A stretch of 33,603 nt of DNA from Dugesia japonica (Eukaryota), in contig MQRL01596018.1 in the NCBI GenBank assembly GCA_001938525.1, forward strand, positions 1 through 33,603, given 5' to 3'. The stretch's first letter is position 1, and each line of letters opens with the position of its first letter. The notes beneath the pieces are model-generated. The model was not told where the DNA came from. It searched no databases and saw only the letters and a list, made by a program, of their open reading frames with translations. Both the position numbers and the translations under genes were made by a program. Of the stretch, positions 1 to 33,603 are shown in pieces.

Positions 1-466
1 CACTATAAATATACTAATTATTTTTATTTGAAAATTAATAATAAAATAAGATAAAGTTTGTATACGAATAAAATATCAGAATAATAAATGTTTTTTCACA
101 TGGGTTTGATATTTTTTGGTCTGCTCTCATTGATTTATAATTACTCATACTGAATAACATAATTGGATAAAAATAAAGTTTGAATGATTAATTGTTGGAT
201 TTGAGTAGATTGTTTATGGTTGAGATTTTGTTGGACCAGTTGGGGATTTGATGAGGCTAATTGTTAAGCCAGGTTGCTAGTTGGATTAGCTACGAATCCT
301 ATTTGGTTGTTATATTGTGTTGTGCGTTTTTTGTTATGCGTGCGTGTGATTTGTCGGTTGTTGTTTTCCAAACAGTAATATCAATCAAATTATAAATAAT
401 ATTAACAATGAAAATGTGGCAGGATTTCTCCACAATGACATAAACACATGTTCTTTACCTTTTTGC

Positions 467-3382
467 AATTATTGGAACGATATACATCCCGGATGATGAA
501 ATAACAGTTGAAACATCAATTCTATCAATAAACGAAGAGCGAGATCCGGATATTGAATATTATGATGCACCATGCTGTAATAGCAAAATATTGTTGCGTA
601 TTGTTGTTGTGAATATATTATTAAGGAATTATGATCACATATTCGCCAAGCACGAATATGATCTGGGTATTACTAATGTATTAGAGCACGAAGTTGAGCT
701 AACTACAGATTAATCCATAAAACAGAGACCTTATCCAATTCCAGAGAAATTGGAAGATGGTGTGAATAAACAAATAAAGTTAATTCAAAAATATAAAATC
801 ATTAGTGATAGTAAATCACTGTATCAATCGCCACTTATTGTTGTAGCAAAGAAAGATGGTTGAGTTAGATTGTGTAACGATTTTAGAAAATTTAATGAAA
901 TCACTGTCAAGGATAGTCATCCTTTGCCACCATTAGGTGGATATTCGACAAGTTAAAGAAAGTTTTGTATTATTTCGTCGGAGATGCACAAAAAGGATTT
1001 TATCAAGTTGGATGTGGAAAGGAAACTAAAGGTATGACAGCATTCTCCACTAAATCGGGACATTATGAATATAATGTCATGCTGTTTGGACTCACTGAAG
1101 CACCAGCAACATTTCAAAGACTAATGAATAAAGTTTTGGAAGATGTACCATTTGCGATGGTATACATAGATGATANNNNNNNNNNNNNNNNNNNNNNNNN
1201 NNNNNNNCTCAGCAATTTGGAGGAAGTATTTAAAAGATTAGAAAAGGCTAATATTAAATTAAAACCAACTAAATGCAAATGGGGAGAAGATGAAGTAATT
1301 TATGTTGGTCATGTGATATTTCATAAAGGGATAATCCTGATCCTGCTAATATCACCAAAGTTCAAAACTTCCCAGCACCAAAGAACCCAAAACAAATCAA
1401 AGAATTTTTAGGTATTGCAGGATATTATCGCAAGTTTATTCGAGATTTTTCGGCATTGGCTTTTCCATTAACTCAATTAGAAAAGCAAGGAGTAAAATTT
1501 ATTTGGGGCCCAGAACAACAGGAAGCTTTTGAGGAGCTTAAGAGGCTGTTGACAACTGTACCAGTTTTGAGATATCCCGATTTCGAAAAACAGTTTATAG
1601 TGATGACCGATGCTAGCAATAAAGGCATTGGTGCTTTACTAGAACAGTTAGATGAGAATAAAAACGAATATGCTATTAGCATACGCAAGTAGAGGATTGA
1701 AACCTCACGAGTAAAACTACGCAGTAGTTGAATTGGAAACTTTAACAGTAATATTTGCTATCTATAAGTTTCGGCATAACCTTTGGGGTAGAAAAATTGT
1801 TATATTTACTGATCACAAACCATTACAATGGTTAATGAAACACAAAAACGACTCATCAATATTAATTAGATGGGCCTTTAAACTACAACCATACGATATC
1901 AAGATAATCTACCGAAAGGGTAAAGAGAATTCAAACGCAGATGCATTGTCTCGTGTGTAACAAGATGATGAACCCGGAGATTTAAAAGAAGAGAGACTCG
2001 AAGGAACTATATTCACTATTTTAAAACAGGTTAACGATCAATCAGAAGCAATTCAAGCACAATTAGAGGATGAGGAGATCAACCAGACTAAACTAGTATT
2101 ACAGACTGGAATCATACCAGCTGAATTTTAAAAGTTTTGGTCAAAAAATGAAGGAAAGTTCATAATGGAGGATGAACTTGTCAAATACCAGGAAACTATG
2201 GACAAAGTCGTCATGGTTCCAAAGATGCTTGTAGAAGCAGTAATGTTGCAGTATCACGATGGTCAACTAGGAGGACATATATCTGCAAAGAAAACTATAT
2301 CAAGAATTAGACAGAAATAATTTTGGCCAGGTCTTAGAAAAGATGTAAAAGAATGGTGTCAAACGTGTAAAGTTTGTGCTACTAGGAGAAATACTGGGGT
2401 TTAGCCTCGTGTACCACTAAAACCTATGCCAGTTCCAACCTCGCCAATGGAAATCTTAGCCATGGATGTGTTGGGACCGTTTAAGCAAACAAAAGATGGA
2501 AATAAATTTATTTTGGTATCTTGTGACTACCTAATCAAATGGCCATAAGCATTTCCTATGCCAGATCATAAAGAGGGATACTATGGCAAGGATATTTGTA
2601 GAGCAAATTGTATTTAGGTATGCCGTGCATAAGAAATTATTGACGATAAAGATACAGACTTCATGCGTAACTTATTAAAAGGTATAAATGAATATTTTGG
2701 AATATTAAAGTTGAATACATATCCATATCATCCACAGACTGGTGGATTAGTCTAAAGATTTAACGGAACATTAGTACAAATGTTGGTATTGTATGTCAAC
2801 GCAGATCAAATTGATTGGGATGTTCATATTCCAACTTGCTTGTTTGCATATCGAAATGCAGTGCACTCAGGTACAGGTTATTCACCATTTTATTTAATGT
2901 ACCTACGAAATAGTAATATCCCAATAGATCTTTTTTTCCAAACTCCATTGTCTCAATATCTTAATGAAAAGGATTATTTGTTGGAGTTGAAAGATTGAAT
3001 GCAAGTAGCATGGCCTAAGNNNNNNNNNNNNNNNNNNNNNNNNNNNNNNNNNNNNNNNGAGAATTATGATAAGAAAACCAAACCTCATGAATTAAAGGTT
3101 CAAGACTTGGTTATGTTGGAAGGTCACAACACAAAAAAGGGGTTGTCACCTAAATTGATAAGAAATTTTAAAAGACCTTATGAAATTATCAAAGCAACAG
3201 AAACAAATTTGGTATTAAAATTATGCTCAAATAAAAAGGCAGAATCTATATTAGTTCATGCTAATAGAGGTAAAAAATATTATCCAAATGAAAAAGAAAA
3301 GAAAGAGATGCAAAAACTAGATAAAAGACCAGACCAAACCAAACCAGATTTACAAGGAAATAGATATTCAATTCGAAATAGG
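467..3382 (+). pseudogene. pol: Gypsy pol (RT, RNase H, integrase) with stops and frameshifts
   Basis: RT motifs [38 protein letters not shown]; RNase H TDASNKGIGALL, FTDHKPL, NADALSR; integrase HHCC zinc finger (~2255-2380), YHPQTGGL, and a GPY/F-like RPYEI. Confidence 0.95.
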
Positions 3383-4270
3383 ATGTTGATGAACTCGGTC
3401 ATGTTTATAACTCTACTCAGTTGTCTAACAAGCATAGAAGCCCAAGAGATATTTGAGCCAAAAGCAGTGCCTATGGAGATAATGATACTACGAAGATGGT
3501 ATCACATGTTTTCTATTCAAACAACAGTCAATTCAAAATTTCAATATTACGTAACATTTATTTCCGAAGGAAAAGGAACTAATTATATCATGGGATATAG
3601 GAACAAGGAGATTAATATCACAAATTTAAGAGCTAATCATACCTATTCTATGCAGTGTGGGTATATTGGTATATTGGGAGAATGTACAAACTACAGGATG
3701 GTATCTTACGACTTTACCAATAATCAAAGTTGTAATAACTTATTAAAGCCCATGTCTAATCTTCACGAAAATGCATACAGAGTCGGAGGAAACGTTAATC
3801 GAACTTTGCTACCACACACTTGATGTAAACGTACGCTTGGACCACAAAGCTAGCGTAGGGAGATGGGGCTCCGAACTCAATTATAATATAACAATCAAGT
3901 ATTATCAACAGAAAGAAGGATCAACAACTACCTACTTGGTATTGTCAGATGAAATAAAACCAGTTAAGGTTATTAAGAAACCTGTCTACAGGAAATTAAA
4001 CGCAAAACTCTGGAGTAAAATTAAATGTGTCAAATGAATATTAATTTAGAAAAAGCAGCACTTAAAATGGCCTCAACGATGTGTAATTGTTCCACAGCGA
4101 CACCTTTAAATTTCAAAGAAAATGACAAAATGCAAAAGCGTATTCAGATAATAATAGCATTGCTGATAGCAGCAATAGGCGTAATATCAGTGTAGTTGTG
4201 GGCACAGTATAAGTTAAAGAAACTGCGATTGAGTTTTGTGCCTGAGAATTTATGCGAGATGGACAGCTGA
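3383..4270 (+). pseudogene. Integrase-fused type-I membrane glycoprotein (signal peptide, FN3-like ectodomain, TM, short tail)
   Basis: In frame with IN after RYSIRNR: hydrophobic MLMNSVMFITLLSCLTSIEA; FN3-like YYVTF...INITNLRANHTYSMQC; N-glycosylation sequons NIT, NHT, NQS, NRT, NCS; TM IQIIIALLIAAIGVISV*LW (~4142-4202). The C-terminal half is conserved in copy B. Confidence 0.75.
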
Positions 4271-4441: not shown

Positions 4442-4499
4442 AACTGCCAGTTTTGGCGTATCACTAGATGTGATAAGTTTATTAATTTTTTATTTTTAG
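4442..4499 (+). promoter_or_regulatory. Conserved hairpin(s) plus polypyrimidine/AG 3' splice acceptor in front of the accessory ORF
   Basis: aactgccagttttggcgtatcactagatgtgata...ttttttatttttAG is closely matched by copy B at 19394->19337. Confidence 0.6.
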
Positions 4500-6369
4500 A
4501 TAAAACAGTGGCAAGTTCCAGCAATCCAAACAATCAATATGGAGATCAAAGGAGCAGTACAACTGTTCAAACTATCTTCAAAGAGAAATACATATACCGG
4601 CAAATTGAAAGCACTTTCTTCAAGGAGAAGCATAAATATCAAAATTACGCAATATATAAGACAGAAGATCTCCCCAACAACTACAATTTCTACCAAGCAC
4701 CAAAAGGGACAATGTATATGTCTATCATGTCGGCTAGAAAAATCGCGAATCTATTCGACGTATTTCCGGATATGTAAAAAAGAGATTAAAACGTCTAATA
4801 CGTGGATTCATTGTATCCATAAGCCCTATGCAGTTTATATTGCAGTTACTGAAGATATAATATACTTGGATAAGTGTACTATTCTTGAAATATCTCATGG
4901 GGATGGGAGAGCGAAACGCTTATCCTTTCAAAGTGATAAAAATGGTACTATGATAGTAGTTGAAATACTAAGCATAGTGAAACCTCGCGTTATCTTCTCA
5001 GCTAATGAGCCTTTGTGAACATATAATGTGAATATGAACGATATGAAAATTTTATAGTCATTCGTTCGATTATCGCTAATGCAGCTTCAAGAAGACAAGC
5101 TAACTCGCTGCACATTATTGTACAATCAGAGAAAACTTAGCTCCAGCATTAGTAGCTGTGACAATCTTAAATTTCGATGGGTAATTATTAGTTAATTCAA
5201 TAATCACTCCCAGACAACCAGTTAAACACTATCGGTCTCACGCTCACGGTCTTCAAGAAGAACAAGTACGAGGAAACTGGGACGGAGAAGATGCGAAGAT
5301 CGAAATCAGACGATTTGTCGACGGACGAATCATAATTGGAATTGTCGTCTCCGATCTCTTGGAAGCAATTGGATTTCCTTACCCAAGAGTATTAGGAATC
5401 AGAGATCTGGGAGGAGCAAAATGTTTCGAAAAACTTGGTTTCCAGAAATGCAAGGGAGCAAACAGAATAGCATACCTACAGAAGCAAATACTCCCAGACG
5501 AAAACATAACATCAACTAGTGACTTCCGATCCGAAAAGGATACTCAAGTCATCAGAAAAATTTATCTAAAAGTACGAGATCAATGGGAAGATTATATTAC
5601 GAGTGACAACAAATCTAATACCCTCAAGTCTACTGCGAAGGCTATAAGCCAGAATAAAACAGCGTGGAATTTGATTCCATTATCCCCAAACAGCAACCAT
5701 GAAGACGAATTGGGACCTACACCAAATATTTCACTCCAAGAATCCGAAGTCAAAGAGATAGACATCCACGAGACGGCGGAAGATTTGTAACAACCAGAAT
5801 CAGAAGAAATCACAAAGAATATAGAGAAAAGATACCCAGGTGTTTAAATCACCGGTATAACAGAAGCTTCACCACCAGAAGAAGGTGACTAAGCTCTTCC
5901 TCCCATCAAAAATGAAATAGGAACTGAAGAAACTATGTGTAAAATAAGAGGATTGTCCCCATCCAACGATCGTGAAACGATAAAACTCAATACATTTTTA
6001 GATTTGGACTCCTCACAAGCACTTTACTTCCAGAAGCCTGGAGGAAGTTGGAAAAACCGTATCGAGGTTTATGACGGAAAAAAGGTAAATCGTACTGATA
6101 TGGTAGATAGCAGTCGAAATTCAGGATCATTCATGGTTGGTGAACGAGAGTACATATGGTCATCAGTGATATATATGGACAAACAAACTGGAGAACTTTT
6201 AGTTATATCTTACAACTTTGATGCGAAACGCGTATCCAAGAAACGTCCACGCATAATTTTTAACCCAAAAAAGTTGTCGCACGTTCCACCATATAGGCCG
6301 AAGAAAAAGAAACCTTCACATTCGGGTCCAAGCCCTAGTCAATCTGTTCCGAGTACCAGTAAGAAATAA
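4500..6369 (+). pseudogene. Retroelement accessory ORF (~620 codons) with a REX4/ISG20-like DEDDh exonuclease fold (~5104-5590)
   Basis: One frame runs from 5104 to 6369 with only point stops. VAVTILNFDG*LLVNSIITPRQPVKHYRSHAHGL...FVDGRIIIG...IRDL...SEKDT aligns by eye to the REX4/ISG20 core. The N-terminal part is homologous to copy B 19336->18950. Confidence 0.72.
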
Positions 6370-6391
6370 AAGATCTAAATAGGGGAAGCCA

Positions 6392-6502
6392 TAGCGTTTC
6401 TAGCTACTACCGCTCTACTCTATCCGCAATCCAAGCACAATGATAACTCTAGCGTTTCTAGCTACTCCCATTCTTCATTGTTGCCAATCCAATCCACAAT
6501 TA
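6392..6502. repeat. Imperfect 58-bp tandem duplication in the 3' UTR of copy A
   Basis: tagcgtttctagctact at 6392-6408 and 6450-6466, each followed by caatccaa..cacaat. Confidence 0.85.
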
Positions 6503-6608
6503 GTCCACGTATCAAGCAGAGTCTCAAATCACATATAAAACAGTCAAATATACATATAATAATGAAACTAACATTTTATAGGAATAAAATGCGGGTGCAT
6601 CTTCTTCC

Positions 6609-13757: not shown

Positions 13758-13859
13758 TGTGTATTTAGTTGAGAAAGTTTTCTTACCTTTTTAAGTAGTA
13801 GAATTTATCAGGCTTTTTAAGCGGCATAATTTTTCATGTGTATTTAGTTGGGAATTTAT

Positions 13860-14275
13860 TTGGTAAGGTCGAATGAGGTCGATTTTTGATTGGTTCAGGT
13901 AAATTTGGTTACTTATTTCCTCGGGATTGGTAATTTTAGATGGTTTTTGTCCAAATTTTCTTCAGTGAGGTCGAAAAAGGTCAAATTTTGTTTGGTTCAG
14001 GTGAATTTAGTCGAATATTTCCTCGGGAATGGTTAATTTGGTTCATTTTTGGACGATTTGGTCAATTATTTCCTCATGGTTGGTCAGTTTGGGCAAACTT
14101 GGTCGGTTTTAGGTAATTTTTGAACGATTTGATTAGGAATTTACTCAGTGAGGTCAAAAAAGGTGGATTTTTGATTGATCCCGGGGAATTTGGTTACTTA
14201 TTTCCTCGGGATTGGTCAGTTTAGATAATTTTTGGGCGTTTTGGTGAATTATTTCCTTGGGTTGGTCAGTTTAGG
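13860..14275. repeat. Degenerate minisatellite: ~10-11-bp subunits, 51-bp units, 183-bp higher-order repeat
   Basis: tatttcct at 13914, 14016, 14067, 14199, 14250; cagtgaggtc at 13963 and 14146. Confidence 0.85.
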
Positions 14276-15699: not shown

Positions 15700-18600
15700 T
15701 TTATATTTTTACATTTGTTAGAGTGTTTAACTAAGTTTCCTAGTCGAGTGATATATTCAAATCCGAGTAGAATGTTTGATGTTTGACAGAGCACATTGTT
15801 TCAAGATGGACTGGATTTTATCACTAGAAAGAACTATTTAAGAAAGAGCTGAATAAGTAGATTTATGAACACTTCCAAGAGAGCCAACAATTAAAGTTCT
15901 AAGTTCGACTTTGTAATCAGGTTTGGCAGTTCTGATTTTGTCTCTGAGACCAGTGTATTTTTCAATCTCAACAAAATTTCCATTTGAGTCTATATGGCAT
16001 TTAATGTCCAATAAATGAATTGATTTTGCCTCATCATTTGTAATTATTAAATCTACTCTTTGCTTGGAATCAGGGACAAATGGACATGTGTGATCACTCA
16101 CGACAATTCTTGATGGTGATTTAAGAGAGGAAACAAGTTTTTCAAGACAAGCATTGTTTCGTTCTGTTGTCAGTGATTTTGTTACTCTGCAATTTTGTAA
16201 CACGTGCGCCATCGTTTCTTCACATTCGTGGCATCGACGACANNNNNNNNNNNNNNNNNNNNNNNNNNNNNNNNNNNNNNNNNNNNNNNNNNAGCTTTAT
16301 TAATGAAGTTCCATGCAAATATTCCAAGGTCGCTTCGGAAGATTGATTTATTGATGCCAGGAGTTAATCTAACTGCATCAGCAATTAAATTGCTCTTCTT
16401 GCTATTATGCCATTTCAGTGCATANNNNNNNNNNNNNNNNNNNNNNNNNNNNNNNNNNNNNNNNNNNNNNNNNNNNNNNNNNNNNNNNNNNNNNNNNNNN
16501 NNNATATAGTTGTTATGCGCAATGCAACATCTTTATTAAAGATTTCAAATTTTATTTTGATATTATGAGTTTTATTGAAGAAATGTAACGGATTTTTAGG
16601 TCTTATCCATTGAGATTTTCTAGAGTTGAATTTATTTAAGATATCACCAGCGTTTAAAAATCCAAATGCTGATTCGAGGGATAGAATAGTCGTTTTCACA
16701 GATGGATTTGTGACAAAACACAAATGATCTCTATTGATTTTTTCTGTTGCTTTACAGTTTGTTGTTAACATTCGAAACGCTTGGACAATACTTTGTGTAT
16801 GATATTCATCCAATAGATCAACACAGTTTGCTCCACCATCTTCTGTTGAACAATAAAAGCAAGCGATTTCTGAATATCTTGGTAGGTTCATCATTTTCCG
16901 TAATTGATCCCTTAATTTACTAGTCATATTATAATTGTAATGAGGGTTACAATTAGGTGCAGTTAAAGCTTTTGTTTTAATTTCCCTAGTGTGGAACGGA
17001 AATATCAATATAGAATGAAGAATGATTTTAGTTTTTGCCAACCTAATAAATCAGAGTTTGTCAACTTTTCAGCATCACATGCAACAGTTGATAAAGTTTG
17101 ATAAGATGTTTGACCCGTAGACTCTCCAATTGGAAAACCAAAGTATTGATAAAATTCATTCGTTGTAAGCTTTTTTATTTTCCTTTTAAAAATTGGATTT
17201 CATCAATGATATTCATTCTTGATAGTTGGAGATAAGCTGAAATCTGGCTGAAAGTCCAGTCCGATTTTCATTGCAATAAATGTTGCTTGGTTGATTAACT
17301 TTTGTAGATCTTCAACGTTGTTTACTATCAGTGAAATATCATCAGCATATGCCAAGACTTGTATTCCAGAATCACCAAGCATAAATCTAGGGACATTTGG
17401 TGTGTATCTTATAGCTTATAATACTGGATTTATTGCTATGGCAAAGAGTGCCATTGAGAGTGTCATCAAACCCTGTTTGACACCTTTTTTGATGGGAATA
17501 CTTTGAGTTAATATGTTACCGCAGCTAAATATTGAGCTAGATTTTGTGTAAAGGCTTCTTATAATATTGATGAAGGCTTCATCTATTCCAACACAACGTA
17601 ACAATGACCACATGTATTCATGAGAAATGTTTCCGAAAGCGTCTTTTATATACAGTCAAGCTATAGCAATTGTACATGATTTATTGTATTTTTAATATTC
17701 TAGAGCCGCTCTTAAGATTGAGTTGTGTTCAACACATAATTCATGTTCAGAGCCACCTTTTTGAAATTGATGAAGAAGATTATTTTCTTTGATCCAAAAG
17801 TTCAGTCGTCTAGTAAGAATTGCTGCAAATATTTTGTATATCATTGACAATAGAGCAATTTGCCACCAAAATGAAATCCTATTATACAAATTCTTCTTAA
17901 CAGACTTTGGAATTAGAATAATTTTGAATGATTTCCAAGCATTTGGTATGATATCGTTAGATATAATTTCATTGTACAGNTGGTAAAGTAATTTTCCTTT
18001 AGGATCGAGATATTTAATGTCTTTAAGTGGTATTGTCCAGTCCTGAAGCGGTATTTTCTACTTTTTTCCATTCATTAAGCATATCGCAAGGATGAATTTG
18101 ATCAAGTGTTAATGGAGATAAAGATCTTCTGAAATATCTTTCGTTAAGATTTCACTTGAATTTATCTGGTTCATCATGATGAAAGTATTTCTCAATATCG
18201 TCTATTGTTGGTTTCGTATTTGTTGAATCTTTATCTGAAAGAAGGGAGTAGACTGTTTTATTCATGTTCTTATTAAAATCTGATATAAGTTTATATTTAT
18301 CAATATTTAATTTGAGTTTTGCTTTACCAAGGAAAGGTTTGTTAGCTATTTGAGGTTCATTGGACTTTAAGTATTGATTTTTATTATCTCAGTAATTGAG
18401 TCAGGATCCAGATTTTCGATCTCGACAAGTATTTTGTTAGCATTTGTTATGCGATTTTCTTTACTAAGCCTTACTGTCTGTATTTGAAGCTTTGAGCTTT
18501 CAAATATTTCAACTTGATTAGTTTCGTCACTTGGAAGACATAGCCCATCAATTATTGTACCCATTTCTTTGATATTTAGATTGCTAAGTGAACGGTCAAA

Positions 18601-18946: not shown

Positions 18947-19336
18947 AATATGTTGGATAATTGCAGAGGGGCATGTTTCTCTAGGAACACCGGGATCGCT
19001 GCTTCTAATAGGAAAATTATGAAGGGTCTATTGATTAAATAGATCCATAGATGAAACGTTTTGTGTTCCTTCTTCATATATGGGAAGACATCAAGTATGT
19101 TTGCCATTTCTCGGCAATGAAGGGTGTATACATATATAGTCCTCTTTGGGGCATTCGAAAATTTGAAATTATTTGGAGTTTAGAGTAGTTATTGTAATAC
19201 TTGATCTCCGAAAAGAAGTTGGCTTCTATTTGTATATAAACATATTTGTCTTTTTCTATAACCTGGGCATACGTATCCTCCCTGGATTGTCTTCCTCTTC
19301 ATTGATAATTGATGAGAAGATTATTCTGATGCATAT
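18947..19336 (-). pseudogene. Copy B accessory ORF N-terminus, truncated at the NeSL junction
   Basis: MANILDVFPYMKKEHKTFHLWIYLINRPF aligns to copy A IANLFDVFPDM/KEIKTSNTWIHCIHKPY; starts after a conserved AG at 19338-19337. Confidence 0.8.
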
Positions 19337-19513
19337 CTAAGAATAAAATAATTAACGGTGTATCACATATCGTTATATGCCAATCTAGGCAGTTTATATC
19401 ATGCATTAATCTATTTACAAGATTATTTATGCTATTTATTCTCAATATAAATAATAATATGATAAATATAAGTATACTACTTTTACAAGTGATTTAAGAT
19501 AGGGGCGGCTTAG

Positions 19514-20014
19514 TCATGCTTTCAACTCATACACATTTTCGGGGATGAAGCTGAGTCTCAACGTTTTCAATTTATTTTGCGTCCGTAACCATACAGTAAT
19601 TACGCATATGAAGCCAATTGCTGCTATCAGCAATGCTATAATTATTTGTATACGCTTTTGCATTTTGTCATTTAATTTGGTTTTCTGAGGAGTCATGACA
19701 GAAAAATGACACTGAGCTTAGGCCATTTTAAGTGCTGCCTTTTTCACGCTAAGGTTTGTTTGACAGGATTTAATTATGTTCCAAAATTCTGCGTTTAATC
19801 TTCTTGAAATAGGTTTCTTACTAGTTGGAGTTGTTAAACTAACCGTAAATTTGCTCGGCGTTGATAGTTTGATAACTGATTTCGGATCTAATTTTATTTC
19901 TTTTGAAAACACCAAATAAGAGGCTGTCGATCTCTCTTGTGGCCGATAATACAAAATATTTATATCGGATATTGATTCGTTACACTTTATCCCGACATTG
20001 ACTTTATGATGCAA
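19514..20014 (-). pseudogene. Copy B C-terminal half of the integrase-fused membrane protein
   Basis: KPISRRLNAEFW..KAALKMA..NDKMQKRIQIIIALLIAAIGFICVITVW..LRLSFIPEN matches copy A 3840-4270; the signal peptide and FN3 part are deleted. Confidence 0.85.
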
Positions 20015-20039
20015 ATGAATTGAATGCTTTATTTTCCCA

Positions 20040-23000
20040 TAGTGAAATTTAATTTCCGTTTTAATTCTTCATATGGTCCTTTATAATTTCCGATTAATTT
20101 TGGTGATAATCCTTTGGTATTATTATGCTCTTTGAGCATTACCAAGTCTCGCACTTTAAACTCATGCGGTTTAGTCTTTTTATCATAAACATCCTTCATT
20201 TCTTCTTGAGAATATTTGATACTCAGATTAGCTTTTGCCAAAGCTATCTGCATAATAAAGCTATTTGCATTCTACCTTTTAGTTAGAGAAATAGTTACTT
20301 TCATTGAGGTATTGAGATAGTGGTGTTTGAAATACTAATTCTACGGGCATGTTGCTATGTCTTAAATACATCAAATAGAATAGTGAATATCTAGTGCTTG
20401 AGTGTACAACGTTGCGATACTCAAATAAGCACGTAGAAATATGAATATCCCAGTCAGTTTGCTCGGAATTAACATATGATGATAGCATTTAGCTAATGTT
20501 CCATTGAATCGTTCAACTAACCCATCTGTCTGCGGATGATATTGAGATGTGTTTAATTTCAGAATTCCAAAGTATTAATTTATTCTTTTTAAGAAGTTAC
20601 TCAAAATTTTTGCCTCTGACAGTTAATAACTTCTTAAGCACTCCATATCGGAACACTATTTGTTCAAAAAATATTCTAGCCATTGTATTGGTTTTATGGT
20701 CTGGCATTGGAAAAGCTTCCGTCTATTTAATGAGATAATTGTATGCTACTAATATAAATTTATTTTCGTCATTTGTTGGTTTAAATGTTTCCGAACACAT
20801 CCATCGCAAGGATTTCCATCGCTGATGTTGGAACCAACATTGGTTTTTGTTCCCGTATTTCATTTAGTAGCACATACTTTACACGTTTGACACCATTGCT
20901 TCACATCTTGGTGAATTTTCGGCCAAAAATACTTTTGTCTGTTTTCTTTGTTGAGAGAACCGTCATGCTAGTTGACCGTCATGATATTTTAAAGCATCTC
21001 TAAGTACTTTCGGAGCCATTACAACATTATCAGTTGTTTTCTGGTATTTAACTAATCCATCTTCCAATAAAAATTTTCCTTGGTTCTTTGATCAAAACTT
21101 TTCTAATTCAACAGATACGATTCCAGTTTCTAAAACTTGTTTTATTTGATTGATTTCGTTGTCTTCAAGTTGAGCCTTTATTACTCCTGCTTGATTATTT
21201 ACCATTTTAAGAACTGCGAAGATTTTTCCCTCCAATCTTCCTTCTTTAATGTCATCAGGCTCATCATTCTGGTCTATAATAGTGCATTTGTATTTGAGTT
21301 CTCTTTCCCTTTTCGGTAAATTATTTCTATATCATAATTCAACTGGTACCAGCTGTAATTTCAAAACCCATTTAATTAGTCTCGATGAATCGTTTTTATG
21401 TTTCATTAACCATTTTAACAGTTTGTGATCAGTATAAATTATTATCTTTCTACCCCATAGGTAATGTCTAAATTTTTCAATCGCAAATATTAAGGCTAGA
21501 GTTTCTAAATCTATTACTGCATAATTATTTTCATTCATTGCCATTTTCATCTAACTAACCTAGCACCGTTTAAATACCTTTATTGCTGTCGTCTGTCATG
21601 ACCATAAATTGCTTTTCAAAGTTAGGATATTTGAGTATCGGTACTTATGTTAACAAATTCTTAAGCGTTTCAAATGCTTTTTCTTATTCTTTTCCCCATA
21701 AAAATTTAACTCCCAATTTCTCTAATTGAGTTAGAAGAAATGCTAATGCTGAAAAATCTCTGATGAATTTCCGATAATATCCAGCTTATCCCAAGAACTC
21801 TTTGATTTGTTTAGGGTTATTAGGTTGTGGAATTTTTGTACTTTGATGACATTTGTTGGATTTGTTCTTATCTCTTTCCAAGATAAGTAACCAACATAAA
21901 AGTTTGACCAAAGAAAGTTTGACCAACATAAGTAACTTTCTCCTCAGACCACTTGGATTTGGTAGGCTTCAATTTGATGTTAGCTTACTCTAATCTTGAA
22001 AACTCCTCTTCTAAATTCCCGAGATGCTCATTAAATGCTTCTGAGAAAACTAATAATCATTGCTACACACCATTGCAAATGACATGTCTTCTAGTATTTT
22101 ATTCATTGTTCTCTAAAATGTTGCCTGGGCTCCTGTAAGTTCGAATGGCATAAAATTTTACTCATAATGACCACTATTAGTTGAAATTGCGGCCATTTGT
22201 TTGGCTTCTTTTGAACAACCAATTTGATAAAACTTTTTTTGCATCTCCGACAAAATATTATAGTGTTTTTCTTAATTTATCAGAAATCCATTCCAACAAT
22301 GGTAATGGATGACTAGCTTTGACGGTTACTTCGTTCAGTTTACGATAGTCATTACAAAGTCGCACTGATCCATCTTTCTTAGCCACTACTATTAGTGTAG
22401 ATGGAAATGTTGATTTGTTATCACTAATTATTTTATACTTTAACATCAACTTAATTTGCTTTTCTACATTGGCCTCCAATTTTTTCAGGTATTGGATAAG
22501 GCCTTAATTTGATCGGTTTATTTATAGTGAGCACAATCTCATGCGCCAAAATATTTGTAATTCCGAGATTATATTCATATTTATCGAAAATATGATCAAA
22601 TTTGCTTATTAACATATTTAAGAGAATATTTTCCTTCTTGGATAAGATTGTACCATTGCTACACTGTGCGTCATAGTATTCAATATTCGAATCTCATTGC
22701 TCTGTGGTAGATAACGTTGTAGATTTCTCAGTTATTTCATCATCTGTTAAGTATATAACTACCATATTTTTATCTGGAAACAACCTCACTGATTTGATAT
22801 TCAGATTTCATATTTTAACAGCCGATTTACTCGCTTTAACCTGACTGACACTACAGATTCTGGGTTTGCAATACCTTTCCATTAATAATGAATTTGATTC
22901 AAACAGTACCTCTCGTTTATGTTTGAGAGAAGTATTGATAAGGCATACGGTTTCTACTATTGGTGGTATCATGATCTGCTGATCAATATATGTCAAATGT

Positions 23001-23380
23001 TCATAGTAATCCTTTTTTCGTTTCCTGGTTAGTTTTAGTGATTGTCCTGTAGCACTATCAAATACTACATCTTAAAGTTTCTTTAACATGTCCATATCTC
23101 GTATACATTCTACTGGACATCTCCTCATGACTTTTATTCCATATTTTATATCCTGATCACATATTTTTATATTACTATCTAGATATTATATTATATCTAA
23201 TCTTCCACCATTTGCTGCAGTGATGTCTGGTTGTTCTTTAACTACAAATTATGTCTCTGTTTTATTTAGTAGATCTACTATAGTAGTAGATCTACTATAG
23301 TTCTGTCTGATCATAAATTTATCATGGCATAAACAACATGTCTATTAATTCTTATTTTTATCGATGGTTTATGAGCATAA
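20040..23380 (-). pseudogene. pol: Copy B pol: aspartic protease, RT, RNase H, integrase
   Basis: Decayed protease YAMINL*SDRTIV (equivalent to D-S/T-G), ITAANGG; KKDGSVRLCNDYRKLN; YTDHK; HPQTDGLVERFNGT; KGPYE. Confidence 0.93.
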
Positions 23381-24154
23381 TCTGCATTTATCATGAAGGT
23401 TGACATATATGTTGTAATCCCTAACATATTTTATCTCTGTACATCAGAATTTGGTTCTGTCTCATTGTTCATAGCATTTCTCTCTTGTAACTGCTGGCTT
23501 TGATTTATAAAATCACATCTCACCTTCTCTGGTTTTGGATTTGGTAAGTTTCTTATTCTATTTTGTTCTTGTTCCCAATTTTGAAATTCTTTTGCCAAAT
23601 CCTCTTGAGTATAATTTATTGGCAATTGTTGACCAGTTTGTCTTTCAAATAGAATTCTTACTAAAATTCTTGATGCTGGTTTAGTTTCTACATATTCTAG
23701 AATTTTCGCCATATCATAATTATCTATGTACTCTCTTAGTTCATCCAGCTAACATGTTGGATATCTTGGTGGCGGTAATGTTGAACTCAAAGTTGGTGCA
23801 GTTNCAAATAATAAAGAATTTTACATGGTACTAATTGGAGAATTGTTAGGTCCACGACCTTCCCATTTCTTTTGAATTCTACGTTGTCTATTATATTTGA
23901 TATTCTTCTTTGTAATTCTATCCTTTCTGGCTTTACTCCGTTTCTTAGGAAGCCCATCTTTATCAATTCGACTATCCTAATTTGGATCCAAATTATAACT
24001 GATATCGCTGTTTTGACTTTTATAGTCATCATAATTATCACTGCCTTCGTTGATTTCATCTGATTGCAACCTTACNNNNNNNNNNNNNNNNNNNNNNNNN
24101 NNNNNNNNNNNNNNNNNNNNNNNNNNNNNNNNNNNNNNNNNNNNNNNNNNNNNN

Positions 24155-25866
24155 AAATTTGCTAAGAATGGGAACAAATCGATAATTAATTGCCAAGTAC
24201 ATCCACCTATCTTGAATATACTATAAGCGAATAATAACTGTGTAAAAATTAGCATCAATTCCTGCTAATTCAGAAACAAAGACTTCAAATGCGCTAGATT
24301 TTTACCAGATTTTTTGTGCTACATTCTTAGCAGCTTCTTTATAATGTTCTGGTACGAATATTAAATTGTAATTGGGTTGTATTTCATTTGATAATACACT
24401 GTTCGGCTTATATTTGAGATACCCCGTTCTCTTATATGTGGTAACCAAATCATTTTTCTAGCTTGCTCTATATATTCAGGAGTGGATACTTCAGTTTTTG
24501 CATAGTCATTAAGAGATTTAATTCCATTTTTGTCAGTTAATTTAGCAATATCTAGTGTTTGCACTGGTTTAGATGATGGTTTACGATTAGGTAACGAAAT
24601 TCAATGCTCATTCACCTTATATAAATGTGATATAGTAGGATTGCATACTGCTTCCTGAGGTTTAAACTTTTCTTTTAGTAACAAATGAGTTACTGGACTC
24701 ATAAATATCAATTTATTCTCATAGATTACTGATAGTTCTCCTGTGCATTGATTGAAATTAGAGAGTGGCACTTCTACAGGAGCACATTGATAACTACAAA
24801 TGGCTTAGCCCATAATTCGTCCGAAAACACCTTTTTCCAACAACATTGGAGTGACTAAATCGGAATTAACTACCGACATTGCTAATCGATTCTTAATTAT
24901 TTCTCGATTAAGCTTACAATCCTTCAGAATAACTTCCTCATACATATCTTGTAATTGTGACTGTAGATTAAGATACATGTAATCCACTTTGTTGTAAATA
25001 TAATTTGCTAGTTTTATATCTTGAGCACTTAATTGCTTGGCGGTTAGAATGCTCTTTTTTTTGCTAAATTTAGGTATTTTTAGTTGATCTCATACTCTCT
25101 ACGAGCACACTTTAATTTCGGCTCCTTTCTAACAAATATTATTGCATCGTTAGGATCGGTGGATACTTATACCACAGGAGTATCTTCCTGCTCGATTTCA
25201 CCAGTCTTTAACTGCTTCAATTTTTGTTTTAAACCAGCTGTTTAGTCATTGACTGTATTTTTTGATTATAGAAAAATGTAGGTTTAGTTACCTCAGTTTC
25301 AATCTATTCTCATTTACATTAGCAAATGATAATCCTTTTAACAACGATAACTCGCTGAAATCTTGTCTTTCCTCAAAATTAAGAGTTGCAAATCCGGTTT
25401 TACAACTGGAGAACTTTGAATTACGTTGAGGATTTCCCATCATCCTTCCTAATTCAACCGCAAATACACCTTTATACTTGAGTAATTCCACTGAATAATC
25501 CTCAATATCTACTACCCAATTTACAGTAACACCTTGTCATGTTTTGGTTTTTCGGACACAATCTCGATCAGGGTATAAGTTTTCCAGTACGACTATGTAC
25601 GTCACAATAGTATTCGAACACTGCTTTTTGCACTCGGCATTCTCTCACTTTAGTTTTGTAATATTCTGTTACTTGGTAAATATAGTACTTTACCGGTTCC
25701 TCTTTTTGCAGTTTAGTAGGGTACGCTTCACTACTTTCTATTGCATCAAATAGTGAGTATATAATCCTGCAGGACTAGAGTTGTTGCCATCATAAACAAT
25801 TTACCAGTTTTTTGCCTCAATATTCCCATCATCATTAGCATCATTAATATTGTAAGAATGATTCAT
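24155..25866 (-). pseudogene. env: Chuvirus-glycoprotein / herpes gB-like class III fusion envelope protein
   Basis: Signal peptide IILTILMMLMMMG; YD.....YSL; VRECRVQKAVFEYYCDVHS; YLNLQSQLQDMYEEVILKDCKLNREIIKNRL; G.AICSYQCAPVEV..CTGELSV..FMSPVTHLL..CNP; C-terminal hydrophobic LIFTQLLFAYSIFKIGGCTWQLIIDLFPFL. The Cys and motif order matches chuviral-type G proteins. Confidence 0.82.
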
Positions 25867-26079
25867 AGATTTTAAATATCGGGGAGATTTTTTAATTTTT
25901 ATATATATTATATTAAAAATTTTTTTTGAAACACAAATATTTTTTCTAAAAAAAGTAAATTATAAAAAATTTTTAAATATAAATTATATAAATAATTTCT
26001 ATATATTATATTAGGCAAAATAATAAAAGTATAGAGATTATTTGATGAAATTATGTGACCTCTGATAGTTACTNTGGAA

Positions 26080-27520
26080 AAGCCCTTGTCTAGCAAGAAA
26101 TGATTCAGCTGTTTTGATGATTATTTTCTATTTATTTTTCATCAGCTAGACAAGGAGAGATGACTGGACCTACATTAATTAAAATAATAATTAATATTAA
26201 ACGCTATTTAGCGTTATTTATTATAAATAAAACGGGTCGCAGAGACCCTTCTAATATATTATTATATTATCGTAGATTATTTTTATTATTTATCTTCCCA
26301 TTTACCCTTCATACATCTACTTTTTATTTCTGTATATTAAATTTAGAGTCTCTTACGCCCGATTTGCGATTTTCGACATTTCTCAAAAATTATACATAAA
26401 AATTATACTCAAAAATTATACAATTAAAGATATATGCAAAAAAGTCAAACAAATATTTAAAAAACTAAATTTAATAAGTAAAATTTATTTCCAGTTGCAA
26501 AGGTCAAAAGGATATTTTTCTATTTTCATAGAGAGTTCAATATTTCGGCCTTCTTCAGCAACTATGGCTCAATTCATTCAGAAATATTAGAACATGAACG
26601 CTCCATGTGTCCGAATTTTCCACATTCGGACACTTAATTTTTCCATTTGAATTAACTTCATCCCTAGCAACTCCTAACTTTTATTTCATGTATTAATTTT
26701 TTCATATGTCCAATATCGAACTTCGAAGTCATAAATATTTCACCAAAATTCAGGATTAACTAAACCATTTTTCTGTTATCAATTCTTTTAAACACCTACA
26801 ACGAGTTATTTTTTATATCTTCATCAGAATCTGTAATCTTTTGACTATCATTTTCGATGTTATTTATTTAAGCATTGTTTCAAGAAATACTTCACTGTTT
26901 ATAAAAATAACATCTTGTCAAATATTTCGGTTTTAGCCTCGTCGTCTGTGATCTATTTTCGGGCATCAGTGGTTGGGTGTTCCTCTCATACACTCTTTTT
27001 ACTGGCAAATTATTTATACATACTTTCTGTCTATGCTCTTCCACTTTATTTATGTATGGTTTCATTATATTTGAATAAATCATCTTTTTTGTATCACAAA
27101 ACGTTTCTTTCATTGTATTTTTCACTTTCTTTGAGAGTACATCATTAATTATTTTATCTTTACTTAATCCTGAATTGATAAGAATTCTTCGGATTTTGCA
27201 AATCTTTGTTCAGTCTTTTGTTTCCCATTGCTAATTCTAAAATCTACTCTTAAAACGATATTTTACCTTGTGTCTGTGAACCCTCTTTTGGGTTCTATTA
27301 CACTTTTTACTTCCTAAGTTCTTAATAGATTTATCAACTTCAAATTATATTAGGGCCTGTTGTCAATTTTACAATATTTATTATACTAAAGATCCAGATT
27401 TAACAAATCTCAATTTAAACTACTACATATCCATTGTATTTCGATTTATTAAATTCTGAGATAAAGTTAACAGATTTTACAAATCTGTTGTTTGACTATT
27501 AAGCCAAGTTAAAATAACAT
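26080..27520 (-). mobile_element. Decayed Penelope-like element (RT C-terminus, possible GIY-YIG tail, pLTR with hammerhead-like motif)
   Basis: LNSQ..SVNFISE, MDM..KSGSL, KSVI, KIRRILINSGL..II and KPYINKVEE resemble PLE thumb/linker motifs; CTGATGA...AAACAGCTG at 26146->26106. Confidence 0.45.
26592..26632 (-). other. Gag-type CCHC zinc knuckle remnant (C-x-E-C-G-K-F-G-H-M-E-R-S-C, with a 1-nt frameshift)
   Basis: Minus strand tgt ccgaa tgt gga aaa ttc gga cac atg gag cgt tca tgt. Confidence 0.7.
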
Positions 27521-27946: not shown

Positions 27947-32485
<4,539 letters not shown>

Positions 32486-33170: not shown

Positions 33171-33314
33171 AAAACTTTTGTCATATTGTTGGGATTGAGC
33201 CCACCACAAATTGAACTTTTATCGAACTGATTTTGATTGTTATCTTGATGTAAATAACTCAATGATATTTTGTGATTAATTTTTAGTTGAAACATTTAAT
33301 TTTAAATCTGATTA

Positions 33315-33512
33315 TTTGATTAGTGTACCGGTTGAAACGAAACCGAAGAAATTGTTTGATTAGTGTACCGGTTGAAACGAAACCGAAGAAATTGTTNNNN
33401 NNNNNNNNCCGGTTGAAACGAAACCGAAGAAATTGTTTGATTAGTGTACCGGTTGAAACGAAACCGAAGAAATTGTTTGATTAGTGTACTGGTTGAAACG
33501 AAACCGAAGAAA
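33315..33512. repeat. 40-bp tandem repeat, ~5 near-identical copies
   Basis: tagtgtaccggttgaaacgaaaccgaagaaattgtttgat starting at 33321, 33361, ~33402, 33442 and 33482. Confidence 0.97.
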
Positions 33513-33603
33513 ATAATTATTAGTATCCCAGTTGAAAGCAACTGAAGGAATAATCATTAAAGAGAATACAGTATATAATTTGAGAAATAGAGAGATAAAA
33601 AAA

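Follow-up and report, generated by a model that had tools for sequence, protein, structure and literature searches.

The locus and the question it raises

In the window studied here, a 33,603-nucleotide stretch of Dugesia japonica DNA that is one whole contig of a very fragmented genome assembly (854 Mb in 648,594 contigs), an envelope-like sequence stands just ahead of a retroelement protease on the minus strand. The question is whether the two are accidental neighbours, separate genes, or parts of one long coding unit. The window (roughly 70% A+T) holds two copies of a single retroelement family, 67% identical and inverted relative to each other. Their features, with one unrelated insertion, are the following.

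~26671-18950, minus strand: copy B, the retroelement copy carrying the Env-protease frame
26592..26671, minus strand: last CCHC zinc knuckle of Gag, a remnant (blastn to L012, L017 and L018)
26053..26432, no strand assigned: unrelated high-copy repeat (~380 bp) separating env from the gag remnant in copy B
25803..25862, minus strand: internal signal-peptide-like hydrophobic segment preceding the Env ectodomain
24290..25802, minus strand: class III Env ectodomain, predicted gB/chuvirus-G type (PF24664, E 3.4e-29), broken by stops and frameshifts
24076..24289, minus strand: Env TM with its juxtamembrane stretch, interrupted by a frameshift and extending into the N gap (24076-24154, true length 73)
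23371..24075, minus strand: coding linker including ORF 23712-23431, with an acidic variable part, ~100 conserved residues and a pre-protease part
23080..23370, minus strand: aspartic protease with a decayed catalytic motif (sister copies L014 and L019 match Pfam Asp_protease/RVP)
20050..22640, minus strand: decayed RT, RNase H and integrase (Pfam RVT_1, RT_RNaseH; tblastn with intact relatives)
19332..20030, minus strand: what is left in copy B of the membrane protein behind the integrase (TM near 19654; blastn to copy A and L013)
18950..19283, minus strand: ORF2 remnant of copy B (tblastx to L091-L094)
466..4250, plus strand (family homology through ~6507): copy A, a second, diverged copy, 3' half only, RT-RH-IN onward
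4450..6507, plus strand: ORF2 of copy A, ~600 residues (4450-6369), and the end of the family homology

Copy B is dead: its Env, its protease and its RT/RNase H/integrase are all decayed. No RNA dataset was listed as containing the sequence, and a quarter of one RNA run, a sample too small to bear on expression, gave 0 reads on 23000-25900.

The Env-to-protease frame in the window

The minus frame starting at 24258 leads from the Env membrane region, of which it contains the distal half, through the run of Ns and ORF 23712-23431 to the protease motif at 23328. Over ~299 called codons it meets five point stops (23979, 23823, 23751, 23433 and 23313) against 27 and 31 in the other two frames, which bears out the sequence-only reading that the frame of the Env TM reaches the protease through this ORF, with point stops and the N gap between. 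Upstream of 24258 Env is broken up, with its signal peptide, N-terminal strands, core and the TM's first half spread over different frames, and the Met at 25866 is not its start. The protease catalytic motif present in other copies is destroyed here, with a frameshift directly after it.

The N gap was bridged by one 723-nt Logan contig (run X1), which covers 23618-24075 and 24155-24346 with 73 letters between them and shows neither an LTR nor a misjoin within 24076-24154; run X1 may be the source of the assembly itself, so that the contig is possibly not independent for this locus. A length of 73 is likewise found at the gap site in five of the eight N-free genomic copies (the remaining three have 43, 65 and 16), where it codes for the last part of the hydrophobic region together with a basic segment. 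Gap sizes in the assembly had been taken as reliable; the bridging contig puts this one at 73 rather than 79, 6 nt off, but the conclusion about the frame survives because both lengths give the same frame. With its Env split over three frames, the window alone is weak evidence, and we therefore examined the family of copies.

The frame across the family

Our genome searches returned dozens of family copies, with 40 candidates scored per search out of 100-616, so that the counts given here are lower bounds. All of the copies seen are decayed and none is open from Gag to integrase. Pairwise comparison (275 pairs among 24 copies, twin contigs removed) gave a median identity of 83% and a maximum of 96%; the copies examined thus lack the intact sequences and multiple copies at >98% identity of the GAG-ENV-POL errantiviruses with a gB-type Env, but high-identity intact copies are a mark of activity, not of descent. 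In 13 distinct copies the TM is followed by the protease within 0.75-2.1 kb, so that the env-before-pol order suggested by the window holds in others and agrees with the gag-env-pol order of those errantiviruses. The sequence could still be an artefact or a pair of accidental neighbours, with an LTR or a misjoin in the gap or a chuvirus gene that happened to land before an ordinary gypsy pol, and the 79-N gap in so fragmented an assembly invites the suspicion. Against this stand the bridging contig (with the reservation about run X1), the recurrence of the order in these 13 copies and the same order in intact relatives, and we give an artefact practically no credence.

If Env and protease were coded together, the stops between them should be accidents of individual copies. 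We aligned the TM-to-protease region of 40 deduplicated loci, from which eight duplicate or near-identical twin loci had been left out, against copy L015 as reference. Between the TM and a point just short of the protease, 61 of 6597 codons in the Env frame are stops (0.9%), and the commonest of these stops occurs in 5 of 24 copies; the other two frames have 8.6% and 10.2% stops, with columns common to all copies. Third codon positions vary most (0.21 vs 0.11 and 0.13). This shared-stop test covers Gag to RT and integrase to the last TM, and in it the Env frame remains clean through the protease into RT. As a control, the same test recovers the end of the ORF as a stop common to all copies, just after the post-integrase TM. 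Three of the 13 copies that span TM to protease, N-containing copies included, are in frame as they stand; among the eight N-free ones, one is in frame and seven are shifted, each by an indel private to that copy. There are also natural open stretches: one of 246 codons in L022 that begins directly behind the TM and enters the protease, and one of 268 codons in L015 that extends from the TM almost to the protease.

These results bear on the simplest alternative, that env and pol are separate genes which share a frame by chance and were expressed through a read-through stop or separate messages. The window linker does contain five stops, and the available text of PMC13524379 speaks of three ORFs and allowed ENV-POL gaps of up to 2000 nt. 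However, no linker stop is common to more than 5 of 24 copies whereas the true ORF end is common to all, and the open stretches of L022 and L015 run through all or most of the linker; separate genes therefore seem very improbable.

Identity of the Env

The claim that this Env resembles those of chuviruses and the herpesvirus gB was upheld on two lines, a Pfam match and a predicted fold. The window's read-through frame matches PF24664 (Monjiviricetes_fusion) with E 3.4e-29, although phmmer with the same frame found nothing in the PDB. For the structure we used a natural stop-free stretch of 587 residues from a sister copy, aligned with 68 relatives, and the predicted fold had a pLDDT of 85.7. 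In a Foldseek search of the PDB, the top 40 listed matches are all herpesvirus gB (best E 5.7e-15, VZV gB, at 9-14% identity). The best viral matches are chuvirus-type glycoproteins, led by a tick virus glycoprotein (E 6e-35, ~18% identity) with chu-like virus glycoproteins next; sequence identity to the top viral glycoproteins is 15-18%. An Env profile searched against the PDB found gB alone, and that weakly (33 matches, best E 0.0065). The class III fold, including its cysteines, is conserved across the 69 aligned proteins.

Judged by its predicted structure, then, the Env is a class III fusogen of the gB/chuvirus-G type, and it has the class III fold, signal peptide and TM of the gB-type errantiviruses. 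Its TM is a single strong hydropathy peak (2.0-2.4), followed by a weaker segment (1.3-1.5). The folded stretch has two N-glycosylation sequons and lacks a furin-type R-X-K/R-R site.

Gag and the extent of the ORF

The unit extends upstream of Env. A phase with almost no stops can be followed back over ~2.7 kb, as far as a capsid-like segment and four CCHC knuckles (36 loci, not deduplicated), and the spacer between the Gag zinc knuckles and Env amounts to ~700 residues in the Env frame. The Env signal sequence of L015 (Kyte-Doolittle peak 1.84) is in frame with the coding sequence upstream of it. In copy B itself only the last knuckle is left, the rest of gag and the gag-env spacer being missing; in L012 the matching knuckle comes after three others, ~2.1 kb upstream of env. 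Phase changes between Gag and Env coincide with indels of the reference copy's own, and the least clear Gag-Env junction is crossed by a natural open stretch in L021. Because no single copy is fully open, continuity from Gag to integrase had to be pieced together from many decayed copies. As in Burro/GYPSM1, one ORF has Env in frame with Gag before it and PR behind it. On the short contigs available, the sequence upstream of gag gave no match to that downstream of ORF2 that would reveal LTRs or a primer-binding site.

The order is thus gag-env-pro-pol in one ORF, rather than Env-Pol alone. The Env-Pol polyprotein first proposed stands insofar as Env is in frame with the protease, but the unit is larger, having Gag upstream and a second membrane protein past the integrase.

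Two peculiarities of the gag region were seen. L129 has it as tandem partial duplicates on one contig. L131 and L135 (~95% identical) share an internal deletion that joins the gag-side spacer to the integrase end; it removes env, PR, RT and RNase H and keeps the post-integrase membrane protein. These two loci are either a non-autonomous derivative that was copied or two alleles.

The predicted post-integrase membrane protein and ORF2

In copy A (3300-4250, plus strand) and in L067, L069, L070 and L079, the integrase frame goes on through a segment resembling a signal peptide, then ~245 residues of ectodomain and a TM, and the first stop common to the copies comes just after that TM. All five database relatives that extend this far have at least two hydrophobic segments after the integrase. 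Blastp found no real similarity between the ectodomain and the relatives' tails, which are alike in position, hydrophobic pattern and a short motif (judged by eye). A search among proteins of 144-461 residues (80 candidates) found no homologues of the ectodomain, Pfam had no informative match for either the ectodomain or the P0004 tail, and the AlphaFold model of the ectodomain, at a pLDDT of 34.7, did not establish a fold. Atlas pointed with fairly high confidence to fibronectin III, which we take as a lead only.

Pol might have a surface protein on either side within the polyprotein, a gB-type fusogen preceding it and a fibronectin-III-like attachment protein following it, and the two glycoproteins would form an entry system comparable to those of herpes- and paramyxoviruses; we put this forward as a tentative possibility, with the odds against it. 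If the post-integrase protein serves in attachment, entry by envelope-bearing retrotransposons would involve a machine of two parts, a kind of entry that is not described for retrotransposons in the published text of the compared elements, as far as that text is available. The available text of the Burro and errantivirus papers likewise has no post-integrase membrane protein, though the figures may show it.

A separate ORF2 follows in copy A and also in L075, L091 and L094. Its Pfam match to an SGNH-like domain (NXPE4_C, E 3e-4) is weak and below the cut-off, and Atlas, with high confidence, places it near RNase_T clusters, a lead towards an RNase_T-type exonuclease. Some of its motifs had suggested a Ulp1 protease or a Bro-N domain, and neither has Pfam support.

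Database relatives and the type of Pol

A protein search over 1.84 billion representatives returned 385 matches at E 0.001 or better, with long proteins leading. In 10 of the 14 relatives scanned (top or long matches), a protease follows Env in one chain; of the four exceptions, two (P0007 and P0008) lack a Pfam protease, in P0016 Env stands at the end and in P0088 it comes after the integrase. Six relatives (P0004, P0006, P0018, P0023, P0153 and P0155) have Env-PR-RT-RH-IN in a single chain. Their Env is at best 31-33% identical to that of the planarian family.

The Pol has the PR-RT-RH-IN order, the gypsy-type RNase H and the H2C2 integrase of Ty3/gypsy elements (Metaviridae). In BEL/Pao elements env is generally found after pol; here Env precedes the protease and Pol matches the gypsy type, so that neither a BEL/Pao-type Pol nor an env after the integrase was found in the family.

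Two observations on the relatives may be recorded. P0004 (HBK71150.1), an Env-Pol polyprotein of 2627 residues, is labelled as a protein of a Flavobacteriaceae MAG and is probably a mis-binned animal contig. Many relatives (P0002, P0003, P0005, P0006, P0009, P0153 and P0155) carry from 2 to 7 aspartic-protease motifs in one polyprotein, some of them after the integrase; in the D. japonica family one such motif was seen.

Comparison with known elements

The env-before-pol layout has a precedent in planarians. In the available text of PMC6431247, the 4873-residue ORF1 of Burro1/GYPSM1 has Env homology between BCL2 and the protease, the Burro Env matches glycoproteins of mononegaviruses (negative-strand RNA viruses), and Burro is called (2019) the first case of an in-frame env between gag and pol. 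As far as that text goes, Burro1/GYPSM1 and the Burro-like giant gypsy elements of dugesiid planarians resemble our family in having one ORF with a Gag of several CCHC knuckles, then Env, then PR-RT-RH-IN. They differ in that ORF1 of the D. japonica family has 3000-3500 residues (a rough sum from pieces) vs 4873-5140, in its one protease motif, and in that the Burro text available names no membrane protein after the integrase. The spacer pieces scanned have no Pfam match to BCL2, BIR, MATH or ankyrin. The family is Burro-like in layout and is not filed as Burro proper.

GAG-ENV-POL elements with a gB-type Env are also reported, in the accessible part of PMC13524379, from nematodes, bryozoans and flatworms (nine from Platyhelminthes), and they are not one clade. 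Those of Platyhelminthes have, on that text, the same order and Env type as the planarian family, but the published elements are intact and recent whereas the copies of our family are all decayed. Compared by eye, 22 of 37 residues in the first Env segment of the window match Smed_errantivirus_4, vs 15 of 37 for Smed_errantivirus_1, and Smed_errantivirus_4 thus appears to be the closest named element. Nematode NERV elements (Sacco et al. 2022, J Gen Virol) are cited in the text available as having env before pol, as does the planarian family, in a different host group. A continuous gag-env-pro-pol ORF is also reported for NERV.

Other elements share parts of this arrangement. Chuvirus G and the chuvirus-like glycoprotein of Anakin-type BEL/Pao elements (PMC7642597) belong to the same family (PF24664) as the planarian Env, but the planarian Pol, unlike that of the Anakin type, has gypsy-type domains. 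The bdelloid Vesta and Juno, in the part of PMC5408684 available, resemble our family in a separate 3' ORF with SGNH-like and exonuclease hints (candidate domains in our ORF2), but are without a true env; in the rotifer Adineta sp. 11 the same text places GDSL and DEDDy both in one ORF3. Cer1 has no stop between gag and pol and its post-pol ORF is not an Env (PMC10309623, available text).

The env-between-gag-and-pol layout is therefore already published for flatworms, and the D. japonica family is one more, decayed case. What the present analysis adds is codon-level evidence that Env and Pol are in one ORF, on which the available text of the 2026 survey (PMC13524379) is silent; the word 'fibronectin' is likewise absent from that text.

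A likely membrane-threaded polyprotein

Taken together, copy B is very probably the defunct remains of a Ty3/gypsy-type element present in many copies, in which one frame ran Gag-spacer-gB-type Env-protease-RT-RNase H-integrase-second predicted membrane protein and was likely translated as one membrane-threaded polyprotein. The layout raises the question of how a 1:1:1 Gag-Env-Pol polyprotein threads the membrane and gets cut, and for the topology and cleavage steps that follow we infer from hydropathy and from general knowledge of viral polyproteins. Entry of the Env ectodomain into the ER lumen would be started by the internal signal sequence, which host signal peptidase would cut. Transfer would halt at the Env TM, so that protease and Pol would stay on the cytosolic side, still joined to Env, up to the point where the protease of the element releases Pol. 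The weaker hydrophobic segment behind the TM would run parallel to the membrane, because crossing it again would bring Pol into the lumen. After the integrase, a second signal sequence would insert the last protein as a type I membrane protein.

Such a chain would yield equal amounts of Gag, Env and Pol (1:1:1). In the copies we saw neither a conserved stop nor a frameshift by which the share of Pol and Env could fall below that of Gag, so that any surplus of Gag would have to come from splicing or from deleted derivatives such as L131/L135. By analogy with insect errantiviruses, the Env likely allowed passage of particles between cells.

The same single ORF is also compatible with an Env that worked within the cell and held Pol and capsids at ER membranes, with inward budding and no spread between cells. 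Infectious retroviruses do not have a fixed 1:1 Gag-Env-Pol ratio, and this general consideration, together with a folded stretch that lacks a furin-type site and has two sequons alone, speaks for such a role. Conservation of the whole class III fold and its cysteines across the 69 aligned proteins argues against it, as does the observation that gB-type Env proteins have not all retained the furin site (PMC13524379, available text). We consider an intracellular Env unlikely, though far from negligible, and prefer an Env that served passage between cells.

Other features of the window

The repeat at 26053-26432 is independent of the family: all 39 other matches (from 40 scored of 5417 candidates) cover that stretch alone. 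Just upstream of copy B and on its strand lie exons of a host protein kinase at 27950-28860 and 32027-32425 (minus; Pfam Pkinase), which by their motifs may be PRP4-like. On the other side, 15841-18057 (minus) has stretches free of stops in the window; it gave no Pfam match, and its RT-like and CCHC-like motifs resemble those of non-LTR retrotransposons. A tandem array with a 40-41 bp period occupies the end of the window (33311-33552), and a repeat family of 102-108 bp is present at 13842-14275, the same family that interrupts the protease in copy L015.
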